From Tolypothrix carrinoi HA7290-LM1 (lineage in GTDB: Bacteria; Cyanobacteriota; Cyanobacteriia; Cyanobacteriales; Nostocaceae): a stretch of 58,880 bases of DNA. The position numbers and the translations under genes are program-made. The DNA is taken from the NCBI GenBank assembly GCA_019358935.1, contig JAHHIK010000049.1, positions 1 through 58,880 of the forward strand, written 5' to 3'. Shown piece after piece: positions 1 to 50,864 of the stretch (positions are counted from its first letter, which is position 1; every line of letters begins with the position of its first letter). Under the pieces are notes generated by a model. The model saw nothing but the letters and a program-made list of their open reading frames with translations. It did no database searches and was not told the origin of the DNA.

Positions 1-121
1 AGCATCTTTACGCTCAACTCTATAGCGTAATAATAGCACAAAAAGCACCACTGTGGGGTAAACCCCACGACGTGGTTTTCATCCCCGGCATGAATGCGCG
101 GGGCTTTCAACCTACCTTTTT
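1..121 (-). mobile_element. Probable left end of an IS200/IS605-family element; its ORF (possibly tnpB) would start at the ATG at 5..3 and run off the window
   Basis: Minus strand reads TTAC|AAAAAGGTAGGTTGAAAGCCCCGCGCATTCATGCCGGGGATGAAAACC, with subterminal hairpins (CCCCG..CGGGG; GTGGGG-TAAA-CCCCAC), then ATG CT at the edge. Resembles cyanobacterial IS605 left ends; the ORF itself is not visible. Confidence 0.4.
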
Positions 122-416
122 GTAAATGGGCGAAATTAAACGTAAAATACTCTCTTGATTCGTAGTCAGGGCTACCCTACGGGAAAGCTCCGCGCTTCAG
201 CCCTCAAAACTATCCGCTTACTACAAACGAACATTTATTTATGCCCATCTACTTACCATATCTCTATGAAGATAAAGCTCAAATTAGCCCACGCAGGTAA
301 GCTTTGTTTGTGTAGCTATAGGCTTCTAGCCTGTGGATTAATAAAACGCTGCATACACCAATACAGATAAAAATCTCTTCTTTTCTAATACCCAGTCCCT
401 AGCAATAGAATAACAG

Positions 417-539
417 CAGATTAACAGATATAAAAAAGTTAGAAATGAGCAATTATCAAATATAAATAACGCTAAAACTAAACACGTATCAGATTAATAG
501 ATATGAAAAAGTTACAAATGAGCATTTCTCAAATAAAAA
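417..539 (+). repeat. Two imperfect ~50-bp direct repeats, period 73 bp
   Basis: CAGATTAACAGATATAAAAAAGTTAGAAATGAGCAATT at 417 vs CAGATTAATAGATATGAAAAAGTTACAAATGAGCATTT at 490. Confidence 0.8.
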
Positions 540-543
540 CAAA

Positions 544-914
544 GATGCCATTTTGGCAACCAACCTCTAAATTAGTTAGCTAAATTGTATGGAGATAAAC
601 GACTTCAAGGGTGTTGTTATCAGGGAGCACAGGCTACTAACTTATCCTAAAAAATACTTTTACAAAAGTATTTTTTAGGCAAAAACTTAGGATATCTAGG
701 AGTGAAAAACTACTTAGATTAGCAAATAAATATCAATAACAAGGTTTGACATTTGCTGCATTAGGAAGTTTAATTCTCTACAGGCGTTGTCGTTAACGTA
801 CCATTAGCCCCCAAAAGAACAGACAACGTTAGCAAATATTCCTAAACGCTTCAGCGGCAAATGAAAGAGTGGGAGTTTGAAAGCGAATGATATGCTTCCT
901 CCCACTCTTTTTTT
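544..914 (+). ncRNA. Putative structured ncRNA, copy 1 (core rod 750-863 plus terminator; 5' end uncertain)
   Basis: CATTTGCTGC/GCGGCAAATG closing stem, inner CGTTGTC/GACAACG stem, loop CATTAGCCCCC, terminator; no conserved ORF. Confidence 0.6.
864..914 (+). terminator. Intrinsic terminator (repeated at 1451-1502 and 2042-2092)
   Basis: AAAGAGTGGGAG...CTCCCACTCTTTTTTT stem followed by a T run. Confidence 0.8.
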
Positions 915-1124
915 ATGGATATCAGGAATGAGCGCAAAACATATCTTCTGTAGCGATAATTCATGAATTATCGCACTTGTAAATTCAGGAACTGGCAAGG
1001 TTTTTTGCGTAAGTCCTAGATATGAGCGCAAAACTATCCAAACAGTTAAATGGCTGGATATCGAGATAGAGCAAAAATGAATTTCATTTTGCTACTTTTG
1101 ATACGAATTAAACTATTTGAAAAA

Positions 1125-1502
1125 GTTGCCATTTTGGCAACCATGCTTCAACCAAATCAGTTAAATTGTTAAACATAAGGAACTTCAAGGGTGTGGTTAT
1201 CGGGGTGAGTTACAAGATTGAATAATTTTGATGATGCATCTTCTATCAAACAAATTTTCGAGGCAAATAATGTATATCGAAAAAAGATATACTAACATTG
1301 CAACTCTGACAAATTAAAATAAATAATCAAGTTTCCATTTGCTGCATCAGGAATATTAAGCGCATACGGGCGTTGTTTTTGTTCGACACATTAGCCCCCC
1401 AAATAAAGCGCATCGTCCGTAAATATTCCTAAACGCTTCAGCGGCAAATGAAAGAGTGGGAGTTTGAAAGCGAATGATATGCTTCCTCCCACTCTTTTTT
1501 TT
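1125..1502 (+). ncRNA. Putative structured ncRNA, copy 2 (rod 1336-1450)
   Basis: Same closing stem, AGGAATATT/AATATTCCT, TACGGGCG/CGTCCGTA (G-U pair on + strand), same loop motif, terminator. Confidence 0.65.
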
Positions 1503-1713
1503 ATTGGGTATCAGGAATAAGCGCAAAACATATCTTCTGTAGCGATAATTCATGAATTATCGCACTTGTAAATTCAGGAACTGGCAAGGTTTTTTGCGTA
1601 AGTCCTAGATATGAGCGCAAAACTATCCAAACACTTAAATGGCTGGATGTTGATATAGAGCAAAAATGAATTTCATTTTGCTACTTTTGATACGAATTAA
1701 ACTATTTGAAAAA

Positions 1714-2092
1714 GTTGCCATTTTGGCAACCATGCTTCAACCAAATCAGTTAAATTGTTAAACATAAGGAACTTCAAGGGTGTGGTTATCGGGGTGAGTT
1801 ACAAGATTGAATAATTTTGATGATGCATCTTCTACCAAACAAATTTTCGAGGCAAATAATCTATATCTAATTTAGATATATTAATATTGTGAATGAGCGC
1901 AAATAAAAATCAATAATCAAGTTTCCATTTGCTGCACCAAGGAATATTAAGCGCATACGGACGTTGTATTTGTTCGACACATTAGCCCCCCAAATAAAGC
2001 GCATCGTCCGTAAATATTCCTAAACGCTTCAGCGGCAAATGAAAGAGTGGGAGTTTGAAAGCGAATGATATGCTTCCTCCCACTCTTTATTT
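1714..2092 (+). ncRNA. Putative structured ncRNA, copy 3 (rod 1926-2041)
   Basis: As copy 2 but with TACGGACG/CGTCCGTA (G-U to A-U compatible change). Confidence 0.65.
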
Positions 2093-2224
2093 ATGGCTAG
2101 CAATGCAAAACTATGTGAAAATTCGCAGTGGAACTGATTACCGGCTTGTTTAAGAAGTCGGGAATCTAACTTTTCACGCTCTTCTAAACGGACTGGTATA
2201 TCTATTTTTAGGAGGGGTGATTAT

Positions 2225-3160
2225 TTAAATAAAATTTGTATCCCGCATAAACTGAATAATCGCGGCATTTACCGCTTGTGCAGCACCAGAAGAAGCATCA
2301 TGATGACAATTAGGTAGAATTTGCAATTTAGCATTCTTCAGACCTTGACGCAATTTCTCGCCATCGCTAGCAGGAAACCAACTATCTTGTTCACCCCACA
2401 AAATTAGTGTGGGAGACTGAATAGCACCGAGATTATTTTGAATTTCACTAAGCATGTTCGGCTTATTAGTTTGCAAATGCTCAATTTCTCGCGCTGCTAT
2501 TTGTAACTCTTCGGCAACTTTTACCAAAGTACCAGGAAACTCAATAAACGGGTAAGTTATCCAGTAAACATCTTCTTGGGTAAGTATTGATGGATCGAAT
2601 AGCACACCACGCCTTTCTATTGCCATAATTTCTCTTACTAAAGGTGCAAACAAATATGCTAAACGTAAGTTATCAATTGTTTGCAATATTTCTAACGGCG
2701 TTTGTGCAAGCACCGACATTCCCCAATGCGGCAGACGTTGCGGAAAAATAGGTACATTTAGTACCACCAACCGCGCTATTAACTGAGGATTTTTTTCAGC
2801 AATAGCAAGGGCAATTACTGCCCCCAAAGATTCGGCGACAATTACAGCGGGTTCATCACATAAAGCACTAATAATTCTCTCTAGCTCAATAATTTGATGA
2901 CCGCTTTTTTCTCGACGAGATACAGGTTTTTCGGAAAAACCGTAACCTTTAGCATCAAAAGAAATTACCCGAAAATATTCAGATAACGGTGCGATGCTGT
3001 GACGCCAATTATAGCTCCAACTACCCACGCCATGTAAGAAAATTAGCGGTTTACCTGTACCTTTTTCGCCATAAGCGATTTGTACGGGATATCCATTAGC
3101 ATCAGTAATGATTAAATTTTGTCGCCCTTTAGGAAAAGTAGTTTGCCACCAATTTTTCAT
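2225..3160 (-). CDS. Alpha/beta-fold hydrolase
   Basis: LIFLHGVG, FDAKGYGFS, nucleophile elbow AESLG, LILWGEQD, C-terminal His; start taken at MKNWW. Confidence 0.9.
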   Translation of the reverse strand: MKNWWQTTFPKGRQNLIITDANGYPVQIAYGEKGTGKPLIFLHGVGSWSYNWRHSIAPLSEYFRVISFDAKGYGFSEKPVSRREKSGHQIIELERIISALCDEPAVIVAESLGAVIALAIAEKNPQLIARLVVLNVPIFPQRLPHWGMSVLAQTPLEILQTIDNLRLAYLFAPLVREIMAIERRGVLFDPSILTQEDVYWITYPFIEFPGTLVKVAEELQIAAREIEHLQTNKPNMLSEIQNNLGAIQSPTLILWGEQDSWFPASDGEKLRQGLKNAKLQILPNCHHDASSGAAQAVNAAIIQFMRDTNFI

Positions 3161-3180
3161 CCCTTTTATCAACAAATAAT

Positions 3181-3684
3181 TTAAACACCAAATAAGGCTT
3201 GCCACAGCAGTCTAATTAGTATCACAGGCAATGCTACTAATACACTGGCAACAAGCAATAACAAGAGCAAAAGTGCCGCGATAAACCATACATCTGCGCT
3301 CTTATTCTGTCCAGGAAATCTTAAGTATTCTTCTAATAACTTAATATTATGCTCGTTTGCTGTCCAAGCAAAATCAAAAAAGTCTCCCAGCACTGGTATA
3401 GCGCCCAACAAGCCATCAATAATAATATTTAAGACCATTCTGCCCAAAGTTGCTTTAGGTGCGCCTAATCGCGCCGCTTCTAGGACAATGTAAGCAGAAA
3501 GCATGACTCCCAAAAAATCACCACCAAGAGGTATAAATCCTATAAGTGGATCTAGTCCAATACCAACCCGCGTTCCGGGAATGGTTATGGCATTATCCAG
3601 CAGACGGCTAAGTTGACGCAAACGCTTTAAGGTAGGCGCTTTAGCATCGGGTTCAATCGTGAACTTTATAGGAGATTTAGACAT
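3181..3684 (-). CDS. DUF4112-like membrane protein
   Basis: LLDNAITIPGTRVGIGLDPLIGFIP..GD, IP..GDFFD..W.AN motifs. Confidence 0.85.
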   Translation of the reverse strand: MSKSPIKFTIEPDAKAPTLKRLRQLSRLLDNAITIPGTRVGIGLDPLIGFIPLGGDFLGVMLSAYIVLEAARLGAPKATLGRMVLNIIIDGLLGAIPVLGDFFDFAWTANEHNIKLLEEYLRFPGQNKSADVWFIAALLLLLLLVASVLVALPVILIRLLWQALFGV

Positions 3685-3751
3685 GGACGCGATCGCTTTT
3701 TTCTGTTCTAACCGCTAAATATTCTACTCTGATGTGTGCCTTTTTACAGGA

Positions 3752-4660
3752 TTAATTGTTACGATTATGCTCCGAAGCGTTAGAATGCTGGCGCGATCGC
3801 ATATCTTCACCGACAACTACATTTAATTGATCCCCAATTAAAAGAACCGCAGCACTCATCCAAAGCCACAGCATTAAAACAATCACCGCTCCCACTGCAC
3901 CATAGGCGATGTTATAGTTACCGAAATTCGCCACATAAGCGCGAAATAGACTCGACACCATCGCCCACGAAATAGCCGCTATAATTGCCCCAGGCATCAT
4001 CGGCGTACCTGAATTCCACTTTGAAGGACCGTAGCGATAGATAAAAGCAAAGGCAGCAGCAACAATACCTAAAGCTAAAGCCCAGCGTAACAGCAGCCAA
4101 AAATGCAATAATAATCCGAAAAAATCATTTTCACGCGCCAAAAGTTGCAACACGAAGTCACTAATAAACACCAAAAAAGAAGCCATCACAAAAAGCATGA
4201 TCGTGCCAATTGTTAATCCCAAAGAGATGAGTTTAGCTTTCCAAAAAGGTCGTATCTTATCTGAGGGAATTTGATGAATTTGATCGAGGGCTGTCATCGC
4301 TGTACTGACTGCACCAGAAGCAGTCCAAATGGCGATCGCAAAACTCAGAGAAAACAAACCGCTATTTTTTGAGTTGGTAATTTCTTTCGTAGCAAAATCA
4401 CGAATCAAAGTTAGTGCTTCTTCTGGTGCAATTTGACTCAGTTGCACCGCCATCTGTTTAAAAGTCTCTTGCAAAGATTCTTCAAATAAGCCAATGGCTG
4501 TCAGGGCGGCAAGAATTGCGGGAAACAACGATAACATTGCATTGAAGGCAATTTCCGAAGCTAGTCCCAAAAGTCGCCGTTTGATGGTAATCGCAAAGGT
4601 TTTCTTGAAGGTGCCAGCATTGAGGTAGCGAAAAAAGCGGACAAAACGAGGCTTTGCCAT
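3752..4660 (-). CDS. YihY/BrkB family membrane protein
   Basis: LASEIAFNAMLSLFP, YNIAYGAVGAVIVLMLWLW; multiple TM segments. Confidence 0.9.
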   Translation of the reverse strand: MAKPRFVRFFRYLNAGTFKKTFAITIKRRLLGLASEIAFNAMLSLFPAILAALTAIGLFEESLQETFKQMAVQLSQIAPEEALTLIRDFATKEITNSKNSGLFSLSFAIAIWTASGAVSTAMTALDQIHQIPSDKIRPFWKAKLISLGLTIGTIMLFVMASFLVFISDFVLQLLARENDFFGLLLHFWLLLRWALALGIVAAAFAFIYRYGPSKWNSGTPMMPGAIIAAISWAMVSSLFRAYVANFGNYNIAYGAVGAVIVLMLWLWMSAAVLLIGDQLNVVVGEDMRSRQHSNASEHNRNN

Positions 4661-4710
4661 GATTTTAGTGGCGGCAGGTTGGGTTTCTCAACTAGTCTGC
4701 CAAATAGTTA

Positions 4711-4860
4711 TGGGGGAGTGGGGAATGGGGAATGGATAATGGGTAATGGGTAATGGGTAATGGGGAATGGGGGAAAGAATTATTACCAATGCCCACTTGG
4801 ACAATTACCAATTACCAATTACCAATTACCAATTACCAATTACCAATTATCAATGCCCAA
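4711..4860. repeat. Heptameric STRR repeats (GGGAATG/GGGTAAT and CAATTAC)
   Basis: Direct tandem 7-mers typical of Nostocales. Confidence 0.9.
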
Positions 4861-4881
4861 TGTCAAAAATTCAAAATATTT

Positions 4882-5349
4882 ATGAGTCAAGAATTAACAC
4901 AACAATGGTTGGCGGAAATTCAAACGCTGAGACAGCAACTAGCGCAACTGGAAAGCGATCGCGATTCTGGTTGGGAAAGTGCTGAAAAATGGCGTCAACT
5001 TTACAACACCGAAGCCGAACAACGCCGCACAGATGCTCAGATGTCGCAGGTGGCGATCGCCGAATTAAAGGCAGAAATTCAAAAACTTAAGGGTATTGAA
5101 GATGCCACATTACCCGACTCGACAACAGCGACAGCTATCCAACAAGAAATAGCACAACTAAAATCTCCAGAGGAATTGCAACCCAAATTAATTGCAGTCA
5201 TGAAAGAACGCGATCGCCTGCTGCAAGCCTTAAAAACGGAGCAAGACAACCACGCCCAAACCCGCAACAACCTCACCACCGCTTTAGGTGATGCGATTGA
5301 TAGCTTGACACGAGAGCGAGCAGCAGGAGAGGGGGAGAGTGGGAGATGA
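4882..5349 (+). CDS. Coiled-coil hypothetical protein
   Basis: ORF from MSQELTQQW with heptad pattern; the upstream extension is translated STRR. Confidence 0.75.
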   Translation: MSQELTQQWLAEIQTLRQQLAQLESDRDSGWESAEKWRQLYNTEAEQRRTDAQMSQVAIAELKAEIQKLKGIEDATLPDSTTATAIQQEIAQLKSPEELQPKLIAVMKERDRLLQALKTEQDNHAQTRNNLTTALGDAIDSLTRERAAGEGESGR

Positions 5350-5597
5350 GGGAGAGGGGGGGAGGGGGGGAGGGGGGACAAGGGAGAGGGGGAGGACAAG
5401 GGAGAGGGGGAGAGGGGGGACAAGGGAGAGGGGGAGGACAAGGGAGAGGGGGAGGACAAGGGAGATATAGAAATTTCTTCCTTATCTTCTTATCCCCCTT
5501 GTCCCCCTTGTCCCCCTTGTCCCCCTTTCCCCCTGCCCCCTTGTCCCCCTTGTCCTCCTTGTCCCCCTTGTCCCCCTTGTCCCCCTTGTCCCCCACT
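5345..5597. repeat. Opposed purine/pyrimidine tandem repeats (GGACAAGGG / CCCCTTGTC) between convergent genes
   Basis: 9- and 18-bp units arranged as inverted blocks. Confidence 0.9.
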
Positions 5598-5600
5598 CTT

Positions 5601-6692
5601 CTAAAACCCCATCGCTTCGGCTACTGCTTTGAGTTCTGGTGCGATGCCGACTTGAAATTTGCTGTGATTGTGTTTAATGGCTGTATCTGGGTCTTTTAAA
5701 CCATTGCCGGTGAGGACGCAAACGACGGTTGCACCTGTGGGTATTTGGTCTTTTACTTGCAACATGCCGGCGACGGAAGCAGCGCTGGCTGGTTCGCAGA
5801 AAATGCCTTCTTCTGACGCTAAAAGTCGATAAGCGTCAAGGATTTCTTCGTCGGTGACGGCGTGGAAGTTGCCCATACTTGCTGATTTGACAGCGATCGC
5901 TTTTTCCCAACTTGCGGGATTGCCAATTCTAATTGCTGTGGCTAGAGTTTCTGGATGCGCTATCGGCTGACCGCTGATTAAAGGTGCAGCACCTGCGGCT
6001 TGAAATCCCATCATCCGAGGTAAGCGATCGCATTTTCCCGCTTGATGATATTGACAAAAGCCCATCCAATATGCTGTGATATTTCCCGCATTGCCCACCG
6101 GGATACACAGCCAATCGGGAGCATTACCCAGGACATCGACAATTTCAAACGCCCCTGTTTTCTGTCCTTCCAAACGGTAGGGATTGACTGAATTGACCAA
6201 AGTTACCGGATAACTGATAGCCATTTCCCGGACAATTTCCAGCGCTTGGTCAAAATTACCTTTAATTGCCAGTACTTCTGCCCCATAAAGCAACGCTTGT
6301 GCTAACTTGCCCAATGCTACATAGCCATCGGGAATTAAAACAAAAGCACTCATTCCCCCACGCCTAGCATAAGCTGCCGCTGCTGCTGAGGTGTTGCCCG
6401 TGCTAGCACAAATTACCGCCTTTGCCCCAGCTTCCTTAGCCTTGGAAATTGCCATTGTCATTCCTCGGTCTTTAAAGCTACCAGTAGGATTAAGACCATC
6501 GTATTTGACAAAGACACGTACTTGTCTACCAATGCGTTCTGCCAGCGCGGGAACTGGTATCAGCGGAGTGTTACCCTCTTGGAGGGTGACAACCGGAGTT
6601 TTTTCGCTGACAGGCAAGTATTCGCGGTATTCTTCTATCAGTCCTAGCCAGGGTTGGCGATGAGATTTAGCAGCAGACAGGCTCAAAGTCAC
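5601..6692 (-). CDS. thrC: Threonine synthase
   Basis: [16 protein letters not shown] (PLP Lys), [30 protein letters not shown]. Confidence 0.97.
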
Positions 6693-7016
6693 AGGATTTA
6701 AAAGTTTTTTACAAGAGAAGGACGGGAGATTGAAAGCCCCCGAGCATCACAGAACGTAGTTCAACAGATGCGTGCAACAGATGCCAGTTTATCGTTTAAC
6801 TGATATTGCTGGAAAGATTTAGACACGTTTTGTCAAATATCTTGGGGAAGGTATAATTTTTTTGGAACAAAGCGCGTTTGTTCGTAGTCTCTTATGACAA
6901 AGGCTTTGATTCATTAGCTTAAGTAATTGAAAGTTTATAATGATTTAACAAAGCTTAAAATTGACTTATTATAATATCTCTGAATGTGTGAGTTGAGTTT
7001 AGGATCTCGTTTAACT

Positions 7017-9894: not shown

Positions 9895-11748
9895 GTGTGT
9901 GTAGAGTGTAAAAAGTTGAAAGATAAACTGCTTCGCAATCAAAGTAAAGCCTTAATTTTCGCATTGTTATTACTTGCGGGAATTTACGGATTTACAGAAA
10001 AAGCGATGTCTCAAGTGGATAGGAGAGGGGGAGAGGGGGAGACAAGGGCGACGGGCGTGGAGACAAGGGGACAAGGAGACAAGGGAGACAAGGGAGACAA
10101 GGGAGACAAGGAGGACAAGGAAGATTCTTTCCTTTCTCCCCATTCCCCCCAACCCCACTTCGTGGGGACCCCAAAGCCCCCCATCTCCCCATCTCCCCAT
10201 CCCCCCCTCTCCCCATTCCCCACTCCCCAATCAAACGACGATCCGATGGCGCAAGTCACATCGGTTTCCCAACTTAAAGACGTACAACCTACAGATTGGG
10301 CGTTTCAAGCGTTACAGTCTTTAGTTGAACGCTATGGTTGCATAGCAGGGTATCCAGACGCAACTTATCGAGGTAGCCGCGCTTTAACTCGATATGAATT
10401 TGCTGCCGGTTTGAATGCTTGTTTAGATAAAGTCAATGAATTAATTGCTACCGCCACCAGTGATTTAGTCAGCCGCGAAGATTTAGCAACTTTGCAAAAG
10501 TTACAGTCACAATTTGCCCCGGAATTAGCAACCTTACGCAATCGAGTTGATAATTTAGAAGCCCGCGCAACTCAAATAGAAACCAACCAATTTTCTCCAA
10601 CAACAAAACTCAGCGGTATCACGATAGTTGGTATTCAAGGAAGAAGCCGCAATCGTGCTGATATTGCTCCCAGAGATGGCAAAAAAGACACAGAAGATGC
10701 GGGTACAAATATTAATGTTATTTCCTTATCACAGTTATATTTAACTACTCAATTCGACCCCCGCAGTTACTTGGTAACAGGTCTTTTAGCAGCTGACGGT
10801 TCCACTGCACCCAGATTTAGCAACGATGTTGTACTTGGCTACGAATATTCTACAAATAACAGCGTCATACTAAGTGACCTTCATTATCATCATTTGATTA
10901 CTGACAACTTTGCAGTGATGATAGGAACAGCATATGTAAATATGACCACTGCATTTAGAGGTCCAAACCGAGTAGAAAACGCTGCCACCGGACCCCTATC
11001 TTATTTTGCTCAACGCAACCCAATTTTAAATATGGGTTTCGGTCAAGCTGGTATAGCTTTTGATTGGCAATTTGCCAAACGCGCTAGTTTGCAAGCATTG
11101 TATTCTAGTTATAATCCGCAAAATCCTGGTAAACGCAACGGTTTATTTGATGGAAACACGACTACTGGCGTACAATTGTTAGTCACACCAACTGATGCTT
11201 TTGATGTCAGTTTATATTACGTTAATAATTATTCTTCAAATGGTTGTTTGCTGACTTTCGTCGGGGATGAGTGTTTAACTGCGGTTAATAGCACAGGTAA
11301 ATCAGAACCATTACAAACAAACGCTGTTGGTGCTACTGTCAATTGGCAAATTTCTTCCCGTCTTACATTAGGTGCTTGGGGCGGTTATACTAATTCTTAT
11401 ATTCCTGGGCGATCGGGCAATGTCGAAACCACAAATTACATGGTGTATTTGAATTTTCCTGATTTATTTCACAAAGGCAATTTAGGCGGAATTTATATCG
11501 GACAACCTCCAAAAATTACCAGTAGCGACTTACCTGTAGGAAACAATGTCCCAGACTTTATCAATACAGGTTTAGGACGCAGAGGTGGACAACCAGGAAC
11601 CACCACTCAAATCGAAGCTTTTTATCGCTTCCAGCTAACAGATAACATCACCATCACACCAGGTATTATTCATATCCTAGAACCTGGTCATACACCAAAT
11701 AGCGACCCAATTACCATCGGAATTTTGCGTAGTAGCTTCACATTTTAG
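9895..11748 (+). CDS. SLH-domain outer-membrane porin (OprB/iron-uptake porin family)
   Basis: QVTSVSQLKDVQPTDWAFQALQSLVERYGCIAGYPD SLH motif, coiled coil, C-terminal Phe; low-complexity repeat insert at about 10021-10230. Confidence 0.93.
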   Translation: MCVECKKLKDKLLRNQSKALIFALLLLAGIYGFTEKAMSQVDRRGGEGETRATGVETRGQGDKGDKGDKGDKEDKEDSFLSPHSPQPHFVGTPKPPISPSPHPPLSPFPTPQSNDDPMAQVTSVSQLKDVQPTDWAFQALQSLVERYGCIAGYPDATYRGSRALTRYEFAAGLNACLDKVNELIATATSDLVSREDLATLQKLQSQFAPELATLRNRVDNLEARATQIETNQFSPTTKLSGITIVGIQGRSRNRADIAPRDGKKDTEDAGTNINVISLSQLYLTTQFDPRSYLVTGLLAADGSTAPRFSNDVVLGYEYSTNNSVILSDLHYHHLITDNFAVMIGTAYVNMTTAFRGPNRVENAATGPLSYFAQRNPILNMGFGQAGIAFDWQFAKRASLQALYSSYNPQNPGKRNGLFDGNTTTGVQLLVTPTDAFDVSLYYVNNYSSNGCLLTFVGDECLTAVNSTGKSEPLQTNAVGATVNWQISSRLTLGAWGGYTNSYIPGRSGNVETTNYMVYLNFPDLFHKGNLGGIYIGQPPKITSSDLPVGNNVPDFINTGLGRRGGQPGTTTQIEAFYRFQLTDNITITPGIIHILEPGHTPNSDPITIGILRSSFTF

Positions 11749-49715: not shown

Positions 49716-50864
49716 TTAATCAAACACGGGAGGCCAAAGTTGAGAAACTGCAAGTTCCCACCCAGGAAATAACTCTGGGATAGTCAGATTCTCGCCATCT
49801 CCTAACATTCTCACCCCGCTGTTAAGATAATGAACAGCCACAGTCTGAGCATCTGGGTCAATCAGTAATGCTACTTTAACTCCCAAGTCTAAAAATCGCT
49901 GGATTTTTTGTTGCACAGATGCCAGCCTGTCAAAAGCAGATTTAATCTCCACTACCAAATCAGGTACTAATTCTGGATAAGTTCGAGGAACTCGCTTCAG
50001 CCGTTCCCGTGAAAAGAAAGAGATACGCGGCGCAACTACATCGCCATTGGGTAACTGAAATCCACCTTTGGAGCCAATAATATGCCCTAGCTTACGTGGT
50101 TCTACCCAGGAAAACAACAGCGCACAAAATCGAGCGTTAATTTCGCCAGAGGTAAAATCTGCTGGGGACTCACTCAAATCATCGTCACTGCTAGAGGTTC
50201 CACTAGGATTAATATTTGTTACAGGTATACCCATAGAGACGATTTCTTGCAGCACTTCTTGCCTGAGATTTTGCAGATTTATACCCAAGTTTTCCAGCAC
50301 CCTCACGGCTACTCCATCTGTTACCAGTAGCACCCCCAGCAAAAGATGTTCTGTACCAACATAGTGATGACCTAGTCGGCGAGATTCTTCTACGGCTAAT
50401 TCCAGGACTTGTTTACCTTTAGCAGTGAAAGGAAACTCTACTCCCTTAATTCCATTACCACGACCAATAATTTTTTCTACCTCTGTTTGAGCAGCTTCAA
50501 GGGTAACACCAGCAGACTTGAGAACCTTGCCACCAATGCCAGTACCTTCTGCAATCAGTCCAATTAAAATCTGTTCTGTACCCACAAATTGATATCCCAA
50601 ACGACTACCTTCGTTTTGAGCAAGCACAATCACCCGCGTTGCTTTCGCAGTAAATCTTTCAAACATAGACTTTTCCTCCGTAAAGAAAATAAATTGAATC
50701 GGAAAGCTTAATAATTGGGCAATCTTGAAGGCTAAGGGCAAACTTGGGTCATATTTGCCAACTTCAATTGAGTTAATGGTTTGACGGCTAACACCTAAAC
50801 GTTGCGCTAATTCAGCCTGTGACCAATTGCGCTGAGTTCTCAGAAGACGTAAACGGTTTTCCAT
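49716..50864 (-). CDS. XRE-HTH + ClpC N-terminal (double Clp_N) + Uma2 fusion protein
   Basis: [65 protein letters not shown]. Confidence 0.9.

Follow-up and report, generated by a model that had tools for sequence, protein, structure and literature searches.

Three tandem units at the start of contig JAHHIK010000049.1 of Tolypothrix carrinoi HA7290-LM1 are, with high probability, real genes for a non-coding RNA. They lie as direct, RNA-gene-like repeats on the + strand of the window (the whole stretch of 58,880 nt that was analysed, whose start is the contig end), and their RNA family, though of a broadly known kind, is apparently undescribed; a new promoter signature connects it with HetC/HetP-type export clusters. 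Each unit has its own predicted promoter and terminator, and would likely be turned on by the activator serving these export clusters.

The units recur with a period of 581-591 bp, as measured from the starts of the promoter palindromes and from the 5' arms of the terminators (Table 1). Each contains a rod of about 115 nt and an intrinsic terminator, formed by a hairpin and a T-run, and folding against dinucleotide shuffles gave z = -4.0 for unit 1 and z = -3.65 for unit 2; the initial annotation, which had described this region as three tandem structured RNA units ending in such rods and terminators, was thus borne out. In their RNA part, units 2 and 3 are 93% identical, while unit 1 shows 72-73% identity with either of them. 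The dispersed repeat of the spacers has matches on many other contigs of the T. carrinoi genome, and spacer 2 marks the recent duplication that gave rise to units 2 and 3. The array is the sole locus in this genome, with no further copy retrieved by BLAST or by the covariance model. The next gene downstream, coding for an alpha/beta hydrolase, is convergent with the array; as the initial annotation had stated, the units are therefore not leaders.

Table 1. Coordinates of the predicted features of the array (positions in the window) and examples of loci for the second RNA.
Feature	Position	Strand	Remarks
Unit 1, predicted activator site TGCCA-N3-TGGCA	546..558	+	perfect in 160/162 homologous units
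Unit 1, predicted -10 box TAAATT	581..586	+	22 nt past the palindrome
Unit 1, predicted RNA, ~320 nt	593..915	+	start inferred from the -10 position
Unit 1, RNA parts	5' motif 594-625; AU-rich linker; rod 750-863; terminator 864-915	+	
Unit 1, C-rich loop AGCCCCC	806	+	within the rod
Unit 1, terminator 5' arm GAGTGGGAG	867	+	
Spacer 1, outside the RNA	916..1120		contains a repeat of ~90 bp dispersed through the genome; palindrome at 953-974
Unit 2, predicted activator site	1127..1139	+	
Unit 2, predicted -10 box	1162..1167	+	
Unit 2, predicted RNA, ~327 nt	1174..1502	+	rod 1336-1450; terminator 1451-1502 with inner helix
Unit 2, conserved internal-loop strand	1431-1440	+	
Unit 2, C-rich loop	1393	+	
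Unit 2, terminator 5' arm GAGTGGGAG	1454	+	
Spacer 2	1503..1710		shares 97% identity with spacer 1; palindrome at 1542-1563
Unit 3, predicted activator site	1716..1728	+	
Unit 3, predicted -10 box	1751..1756	+	
Unit 3, predicted RNA, ~328 nt	1763..2092	+	rod 1926-2041; terminator 2042-2092
Unit 3, terminator 5' arm GAGTGGGAG	2045	+	
Alpha/beta hydrolase gene	2225-3205	-	convergent
Second RNA behind hetP	L369:1518-2037		+	among others
Second RNA behind hetP	L323:1497-2041		+	among others
Second RNA behind hetP	L376:1257-1826		-	among others

Other repeats were seen in the window. An insertion-sequence-like end at 1-126, recurring at about ten contig ends, breaks the usual upstream neighbourhood of the RNA gene; two 53-nt direct repeats (417-469 and 490-542, 87% alike, spacing 73) lie just 5' of the first promoter; and short tandem repeats at 4753-4800, 5273-5600 and 9895-10260 give rise to low-complexity shadow ORFs and inflated N-termini of predicted proteins.

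From 5' to 3', the predicted RNA consists of a 32-nt 5' motif, an AU-rich linker of variable length, the rod, in which three helices are separated by two internal loops and capped by an apical loop (about 25 nt), and the terminator hairpin with its inner helix. In an alignment of 34 sequences, 94.8% of the cells were paired and 22 of the 32 pairs varied on both sides; none of 500 shuffles matched these values and structures slid along the alignment paired in only 39-55%, the tested structure having been taken from the same 34-sequence alignment, which is a bias in its favour. Covariation had been anticipated from the three copies alone, where stems such as CGTTGTC/GACAACG are indeed in the sequence, and the homologues thus supply strong support for it. 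Likewise, predicted pairs 1343-1443 and 1469-1483 were among the top three signals of a mutual-information scan with 101 sequences, in which many of the lower-ranked signals are phylogenetic noise. The compensatory changes of the rod extend across about 30 genomes and include many G-U pairs. The unpaired bases of the internal and apical loops are near invariant: the rod holds a conserved asymmetric internal loop, the terminator hairpin a conserved inner helix and loop, and the C-rich loop AGCCCCCUAAAU was found in 99 of 101 RNAs. The C-run in the apical loop has five residues in 71 RNAs and six in 21 (that is, 92 of the 99), and is then followed by TAAAT in 68.

The 5' half of the RNA behaves differently. 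At least eight of nine pairs of a possible hairpin in the 5' motif can form in 60 of 75 RNAs, while RNAalifold predicted no consensus hairpin there; the motif is kept at the sequence level and not by covariation, and it is degenerate in some lineages. The linker shows little structure (z -1.2). A pairing between the 5' region and the apical loop was rejected, because its energy (-11.6, versus -8.0 when shuffled) was hardly distinct from that of cross-species combinations (-11.45), with the own partner better in only 31 of 74 cases. The long-range helix TTGTTAT/ATAACAA that the initial annotation considered possible fared no better (own-species -2.74 versus cross-species -2.86 kcal/mol; own better in 32/75), and no pseudoknot with covariation was seen.

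The coding potential of the units is low, in line with the initial reading: no ORF is common to the three of them and none is conserved in the homologues, where the longest ATG-initiated ORF has a median of 22 aa (101 RNAs), and indels inside the 5' motif destroy any reading frame. The + strand, formerly favoured on account of G-U pairs, was retained on other grounds, because the promoter and the T-run fix the strand; the preference given by folding is modest (z -5.5 for the + strand versus -4.2 for the minus strand, 26 sequences).

The 3' domain retrieved 241 matches, nine of them lacking an upstream palindrome and each of these with 238 nt or less of upstream sequence; the other 232 comprised 162 distinct units and a single empty record, and redundancy filtering left 101 units. 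A perfect TGCCA-N3-TGGCA palindrome is present in 160 of the 162 distinct units, and TAnnnT lies exactly 22 nt downstream of it in 160 of 162. The three central nucleotides of the palindrome take 17 different values among the 162 units, no covariation was detected in the palindrome, and when the 5' blocks are aligned, two islands are invariant, whereas the stretch between them varies freely in sequence and is constant in length. We thus regard the first 50 nt of the conserved block as a predicted promoter, which a generic promoter/terminator scan of the window did not flag, nor did it flag the terminators of the units. Transcription would begin 6-7 nt past the -10 box (at 593, 1174 and 1763), giving RNAs of 320-330 nt. 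Of the earlier claims on this block, its conservation stood and the proposed transcript lengths of 165 or 370 nt did not: since the block is mostly promoter, the RNA would have about 325 nt.

Activation would come from a site centred near -41, a geometry like that of NtcA with a different sequence. NtcA-activated class II promoters contain GTA-N8-TAC centred near -41.5 (PMC3898017) and share with the RNA genes the layout of palindrome, 22 nt and TAnnnT, but the site of the RNA genes is a 13-bp TGCCA-N3-TGGCA. This site also matches none of the motifs DIF1/sigma-HetZ, J-box and XssQ AAGTTNNAC. Transcription of the units is weakly indicated by one RNA-seq run of a related organism, among ten listed runs that all consist of assembled contigs and of which the RNA runs have small word shares; four short contigs of this run fall inside predicted RNAs; contigs cover 737-922 and 1191-1450, there are two repeat matches near 160-290, and 2225-6800 is uncovered. 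The blank elsewhere is no evidence, because the run was found using this very stretch of the window.

As the initial annotation had suspected, the RNA corresponds to no known family. A search of window positions 1-3000 against Rfam 15 produced four matches at chance level (E 0.36-3.7), all far below the gathering score, and eight homologous loci, five of them carrying the RNA, likewise gave four chance matches; 6S, SRP, tmRNA, RNase P, riboswitches, Yfr, CRISPR/tracr RNAs and ribozymes were rejected as candidates, with no covariance-model match near the gathering score. Twelve motif strings searched in the 327 predicted sRNAs of PCC 7120 (PMC4734099, Table S3) returned seven rows, all unrelated, and exact sequence strings of the RNA or the motif led only to unrelated papers in the full-text literature. 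Neither the RNA nor its promoter motif is described in the full text searched, which mostly excludes subscription papers; the supplement of a cyanobacterial RNA-structure screen of 202 genomes (PMC12873609) may list part of it.

Among precedents, NsiR1 from Nostoc sp. PCC 7120 comes nearest in layout: it is an sRNA of about 60 nt located upstream of hetF, with 12 tandem copies under their own DIF1 (TCCGGA) promoters, and represses the hetP-like gene alr3234 (PMC9045159). Both are sRNAs of heterocyst-formers, with tandem copies that have their own promoters and a tie to the HetP family. Unlike NsiR1, the array RNA has about 325 nt and a TGCCA-N3-TGGCA site, is usually single-copy, and has a ddl-linked membrane ORF on one side and an alpha/beta hydrolase gene on the other instead of lying upstream of hetF.

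BLAST comparisons retrieved the unit from 34 of 36 relatives of the same family, the Nostocaceae, and from none of 24 genomes of other families. In a larger sample, homologues were present in 237 of 250 family genomes of at least 90% completeness, some of the matches being confined to the 5' block. The 3' domain, searched as a covariance model, did not match any of 147 other genomes of the class, nor any of 143 other genomes of the order, although the family members included alongside were all matched (3/3 and 7/7, respectively). In the 80 named records among the matches listed by a pattern scan, those titled with a genus are almost all heterocyst-formers, including Nostoc, Anabaena, Scytonema, Calothrix, Fischerella, Dolichospermum, Richelia and others, and there are also one record labelled Chroococcales and several unclassified ones. 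The covariance model has no match in 13 of 80 genomes, a sample enriched for non-carriers; some near-complete genomes are devoid of it and, in four, the usual site retains nothing, whereas members of one genus often retain the promoter and the 5' motif alone. The RNA is thus dispensable, with a few real losses in several lineages.

Genomes contain mostly one copy and up to nine, with two to nine in several genera, most homologues are found at one chromosomal locus, and in multi-copy genomes every tandem copy retains the promoter. The array is a lineage-level amplification of a gene that is usually single-copy. Clustering of the flanking ORFs at 32 loci showed a convergent alpha/beta hydrolase downstream in 17, a family-less ORF of about 215 aa upstream in 17 and a D-Ala-D-Ala ligase in 10; none is a consistently adjacent partner, so the linked protein gene that the initial annotation thought worth seeking beside the array did not emerge. 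The plasmid collection contains no match to the unit, and a 14-mer scan of the viral collection gave chance matches only, which is uninformative. From the distribution and the neighbours, we conclude that the gene is chromosomal, mostly vertically inherited, tolerant of a change of neighbours and amplified in some lineages. A diverged paralogous RNA subfamily exists at a second locus in several genera (L162, L164 and L166), with the promoter and the rod kept and a degenerate 5' motif.

The promoter signature extends beyond the RNA. All nine perfect palindromes of the T. carrinoi genome fall outside ORFs of at least 90 aa; the palindrome alone is not enriched, since other spacer lengths give 0-24 occurrences. 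Combined with the -10 pattern, it gave 37 matches in ten family genomes versus none for the reversed control, some of the 37 sitting in ORFs, probably by chance. Within the order, the combined pattern occurs in 91 of 201 genomes, and the control in about 22. It is present in 68 of the 70 genomes with a HetP-family gene versus 23 of the 131 without one, and at least two sites occur in 59 HetP-positive versus 5 HetP-negative genomes; this association is partly circular, because some sites fall in or beside hetP, and the genomes counted are related and not independent.

The sites precede clusters of exporter, HlyD, HetP and PPIase genes, small ORFs with leaders resembling the double-glycine type, and further proteins that are likely secreted. 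The same was apparent in 20 regions from outside the family, chosen for their clustered sites and with protein labels assigned partly by similarity to proteins typed by family: sites were located before peptidase-domain ABC exporters, hetP and PPIase-like genes, as well as before short ORFs whose leaders look like the double-glycine type and before repetitive proteins that are probably secreted. Beyond the promoter, these 20 regions showed no trace of the RNA. In T. carrinoi, sites occur in a hetC-hetP-like cluster on contig C32 and upstream of an operon with an LxmK-like kinase gene. Further sites are upstream of a presumably DUF1815-like gene, of a small ORF before a presumably YbeY-like gene and of a presumably Wzc-like gene, these three labels coming from the look of the sequences.

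In two Fischerella species, a mapped start site is listed beside a sequence close to the motif, some 630 nt upstream of a DUF1815 gene (PMC5580265, Table S4 rows 590-591); this start is higher in sucrose-grown branchless filaments (log2 2.4-2.7; same source). As listed, it is 24 nt past the palindrome and precedes the predicted +1 by about 11 nt, in a data set where start sites are clustered within 35 bp (PMC5580265). T. carrinoi carries the motif at the corresponding place upstream of its DUF1815-like gene, and a leader of about 600 nt separates the near-perfect motif from the gene (L399; G000:C5:24300-25400); it has no Rfam match and may hold another RNA element. Also in T. carrinoi, an LxmK-like kinase gene and a HopA1-family gene are divergent from a perfect palindrome (G000:C4:49740-52110; L360:9744-12111), and look like a modification pair of the class V lanthipeptide type.

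In some loci (L440:5316, L441:6216 and similar), the palindrome is inside the hetP coding sequence, just past the conserved domain. The second half of HetP proteins ends in a motif resembling the double-glycine leaders of the adjacent small ORFs and, because of this motif, HetP itself may be an export substrate. The substrate exported by the hetC-hetP locus and the mode of action of HetP are described as open questions (PMC10986499). By co-occurrence only, HetP is also a candidate for the activator. Its structural model contains a confident helical domain (residues 20-67), for which Foldseek returned no PDB structure at E <= 0.001, and all its Atlas neighbours are HetP-family proteins.

Export clusters also contain a conserved non-coding leader, upstream of an HTH gene and of the exporter (G000:C32:33790-33965 and 50303-50475; L363, L365, L372 and L413); this leader includes a small hairpin, and one of its motifs resembles the 5' end of the RNA. 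The common motif, TG(T/C)TGTT(T)ATCAGGG, was noticed post hoc; its ATCAGGG half varies, with no clear co-change with the RNA, and two of its eight near-matches elsewhere in T. carrinoi are both paralogous leaders. In only 39 of 72 RNAs does a hairpin presenting it have at least four pairs, and it is lacking in 29 of 101. We consider it a weak lead toward protein binding.

Behind hetP, many members of the family carry the same promoter followed by a conserved non-coding stretch of about 520 nt, which includes a long helix, a hairpin with a C-rich loop and a terminator of its own. It has no Rfam match at the gathering score, and 40 of its 116 predicted pairs show compensatory change among 20 sequences, in an uncontrolled count. 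This second RNA is an undescribed structured non-coding RNA, present in 57 of 80 family genomes and absent from the genus of T. carrinoi. Homology between the two RNAs was rejected, for profile comparison shows no similarity; so was a pairing of GCUUCAGC in the first with GCUGAAGC in the second, the partner being unchanged, by eye, where the first RNA reads CUACAG. Twelve of the 13 genomes without the first RNA have the second, and both are missing in one of 80 genomes versus 3.7 expected, so that redundancy of the two RNAs is not significant (Fisher p = 0.059), in a sample enriched for non-carriers and whose kin are not independent. The multi-copy status of the two RNAs by genus gave p = 0.22.

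As to function, we tentatively favour the RNA being a dose-dependent decoy that binds a protein via its rod and loops and is switched on by the activator of the HetC/HetP export clusters. It would likely act in trans, given that the RNA is retained next to differing neighbours. Our guess for the partner is an RNA-binding protein whose free level would fall when the regulon is on; extra tandem copies, with one promoter apiece, would raise the dose, and the outcome would tune the output of the secretion regulon or another developmental programme. We infer this from the conserved loop bases on a covarying scaffold and from the amplification of whole promoter-RNA units; near-invariant loops on such a scaffold would suit a shaped binding surface more than a seed plus terminator. 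A long mRNA complement of the RNA was found neither with a 12-mer scan nor among 5832 start regions of the genome. CsrB/CsrC and RsmX/Y/Z, large RNAs that are the principal output of a single activator and act in trans through their dose, serve us as a working analogy. Unlike them, the array RNA has no multiple GGA hairpin loops in its consensus, nor any Rfam match to these families. CsrA is reported absent from cyanobacteria (PMC11797042). In an extended version that we consider rather unlikely, one activator, possibly of the HetP family, would act on TGCCA-N3-TGGCA and drive both RNAs, which would titrate an RNA-binding regulator, so that gene dosage would set secretion or the commitment to differentiation.

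A possible, if doubtful, alternative is a base-pairing sRNA whose rod is a scaffold exposing the C-rich loop, which would cover G-rich ribosome-binding sites of target mRNAs. C-rich loops act in this manner on ribosome-binding sites in RNAIII and RsaE. With these and with the cyanobacterial Yfr1, the array RNA has in common an exposed, conserved, C-rich single-stranded motif; it differs from them in the loop sequence, in its long covarying rod, and in having no conserved target found and no Rfam match. In carriers, two small export-cluster genes with double-glycine-leader-like products give pairing energies with the loop of -13.0 and -14.6 kcal/mol, which would place them around the top 1-5% of the start regions of T. 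carrinoi, and two related genes from non-carrier families do so at only -6.3 and -3.4. However, a search with one protein query found the candidate target gene in 0 of 20 further carriers and in 2 of 24 non-carriers; because no further carrier matched, conservation of the target cannot be demonstrated. Besides, most export-cluster genes pair poorly with the loop, no target stands out among the 5832 start regions, and a covarying 115-nt rod would exceed the structural need of a seed. The multi-copy NsiR1, with one promoter per copy, also acts on a hetP-like gene, as indicated above (PMC9045159).

Less likely still than base pairing, an RNA with its own biochemical activity or ligand, be it a scaffold, a ribozyme or a sensor of an undescribed class, might be expressed with the secretion regulon. 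The conserved asymmetric internal loop and the conserved elements of the terminator hairpin would fit such an activity, as would the want of an Rfam match and the second large structured RNA behind the same promoter. However, the fold is a simple rod, neither a pseudoknot nor the 5'-to-loop pairing covaries, and the RNA was lost in several lineages.

We find it very unlikely that the units are mainly a DNA element or remnant, such as a promoter/operator island, or what is left of a precursor-peptide gene of the export regulon that decayed while its mRNA structure persisted; the tandem copies would then be neutral duplications. Outside the family the same promoter drives short ORFs for secreted peptides, the 5' motif is conserved in sequence with no RNAalifold consensus hairpin, one genus often keeps just this motif and the promoter, and dispersed repeats in the spacers can seed duplication; against this are the compensatory changes of the rod with their G-U pairs, the terminator, the lack of a conserved ORF and the retention in 237 of 250 genomes. 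Finally, a type I toxin-antitoxin repeat (the ~590-bp period recalls LDR-type repeats, whose period is similar, by analogy, but there is no conserved small ORF), a MITE or other mobile element (there is an IS-like end at 1-126, but the three copies are at one locus in the genome, the neighbours are conserved across the family and the plasmid collection has no match), a TnpB/Cas12k guide RNA, tracrRNA, omega RNA or reverse-transcriptase ncRNA (no recurring nuclease, CRISPR array or reverse transcriptase among the neighbours at 32 loci) and a telomerase-like template (which the loop resembles, but its sequence forms no tandem repeats in the genome) are highly improbable.

In all, multicellular nitrogen-fixing cyanobacteria have a family-wide structured RNA, which is in no Rfam family and has a precise promoter signature. 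Through this signature the RNA is connected with loci of the hetC-hetP type, and the motif is a probe for its activator. Natural strains with none, one or up to nine copies constitute a dosage series. If the RNA were merely one more regulatory sRNA, it would still be a sound, Rfam-grade family, with a second one beside it.
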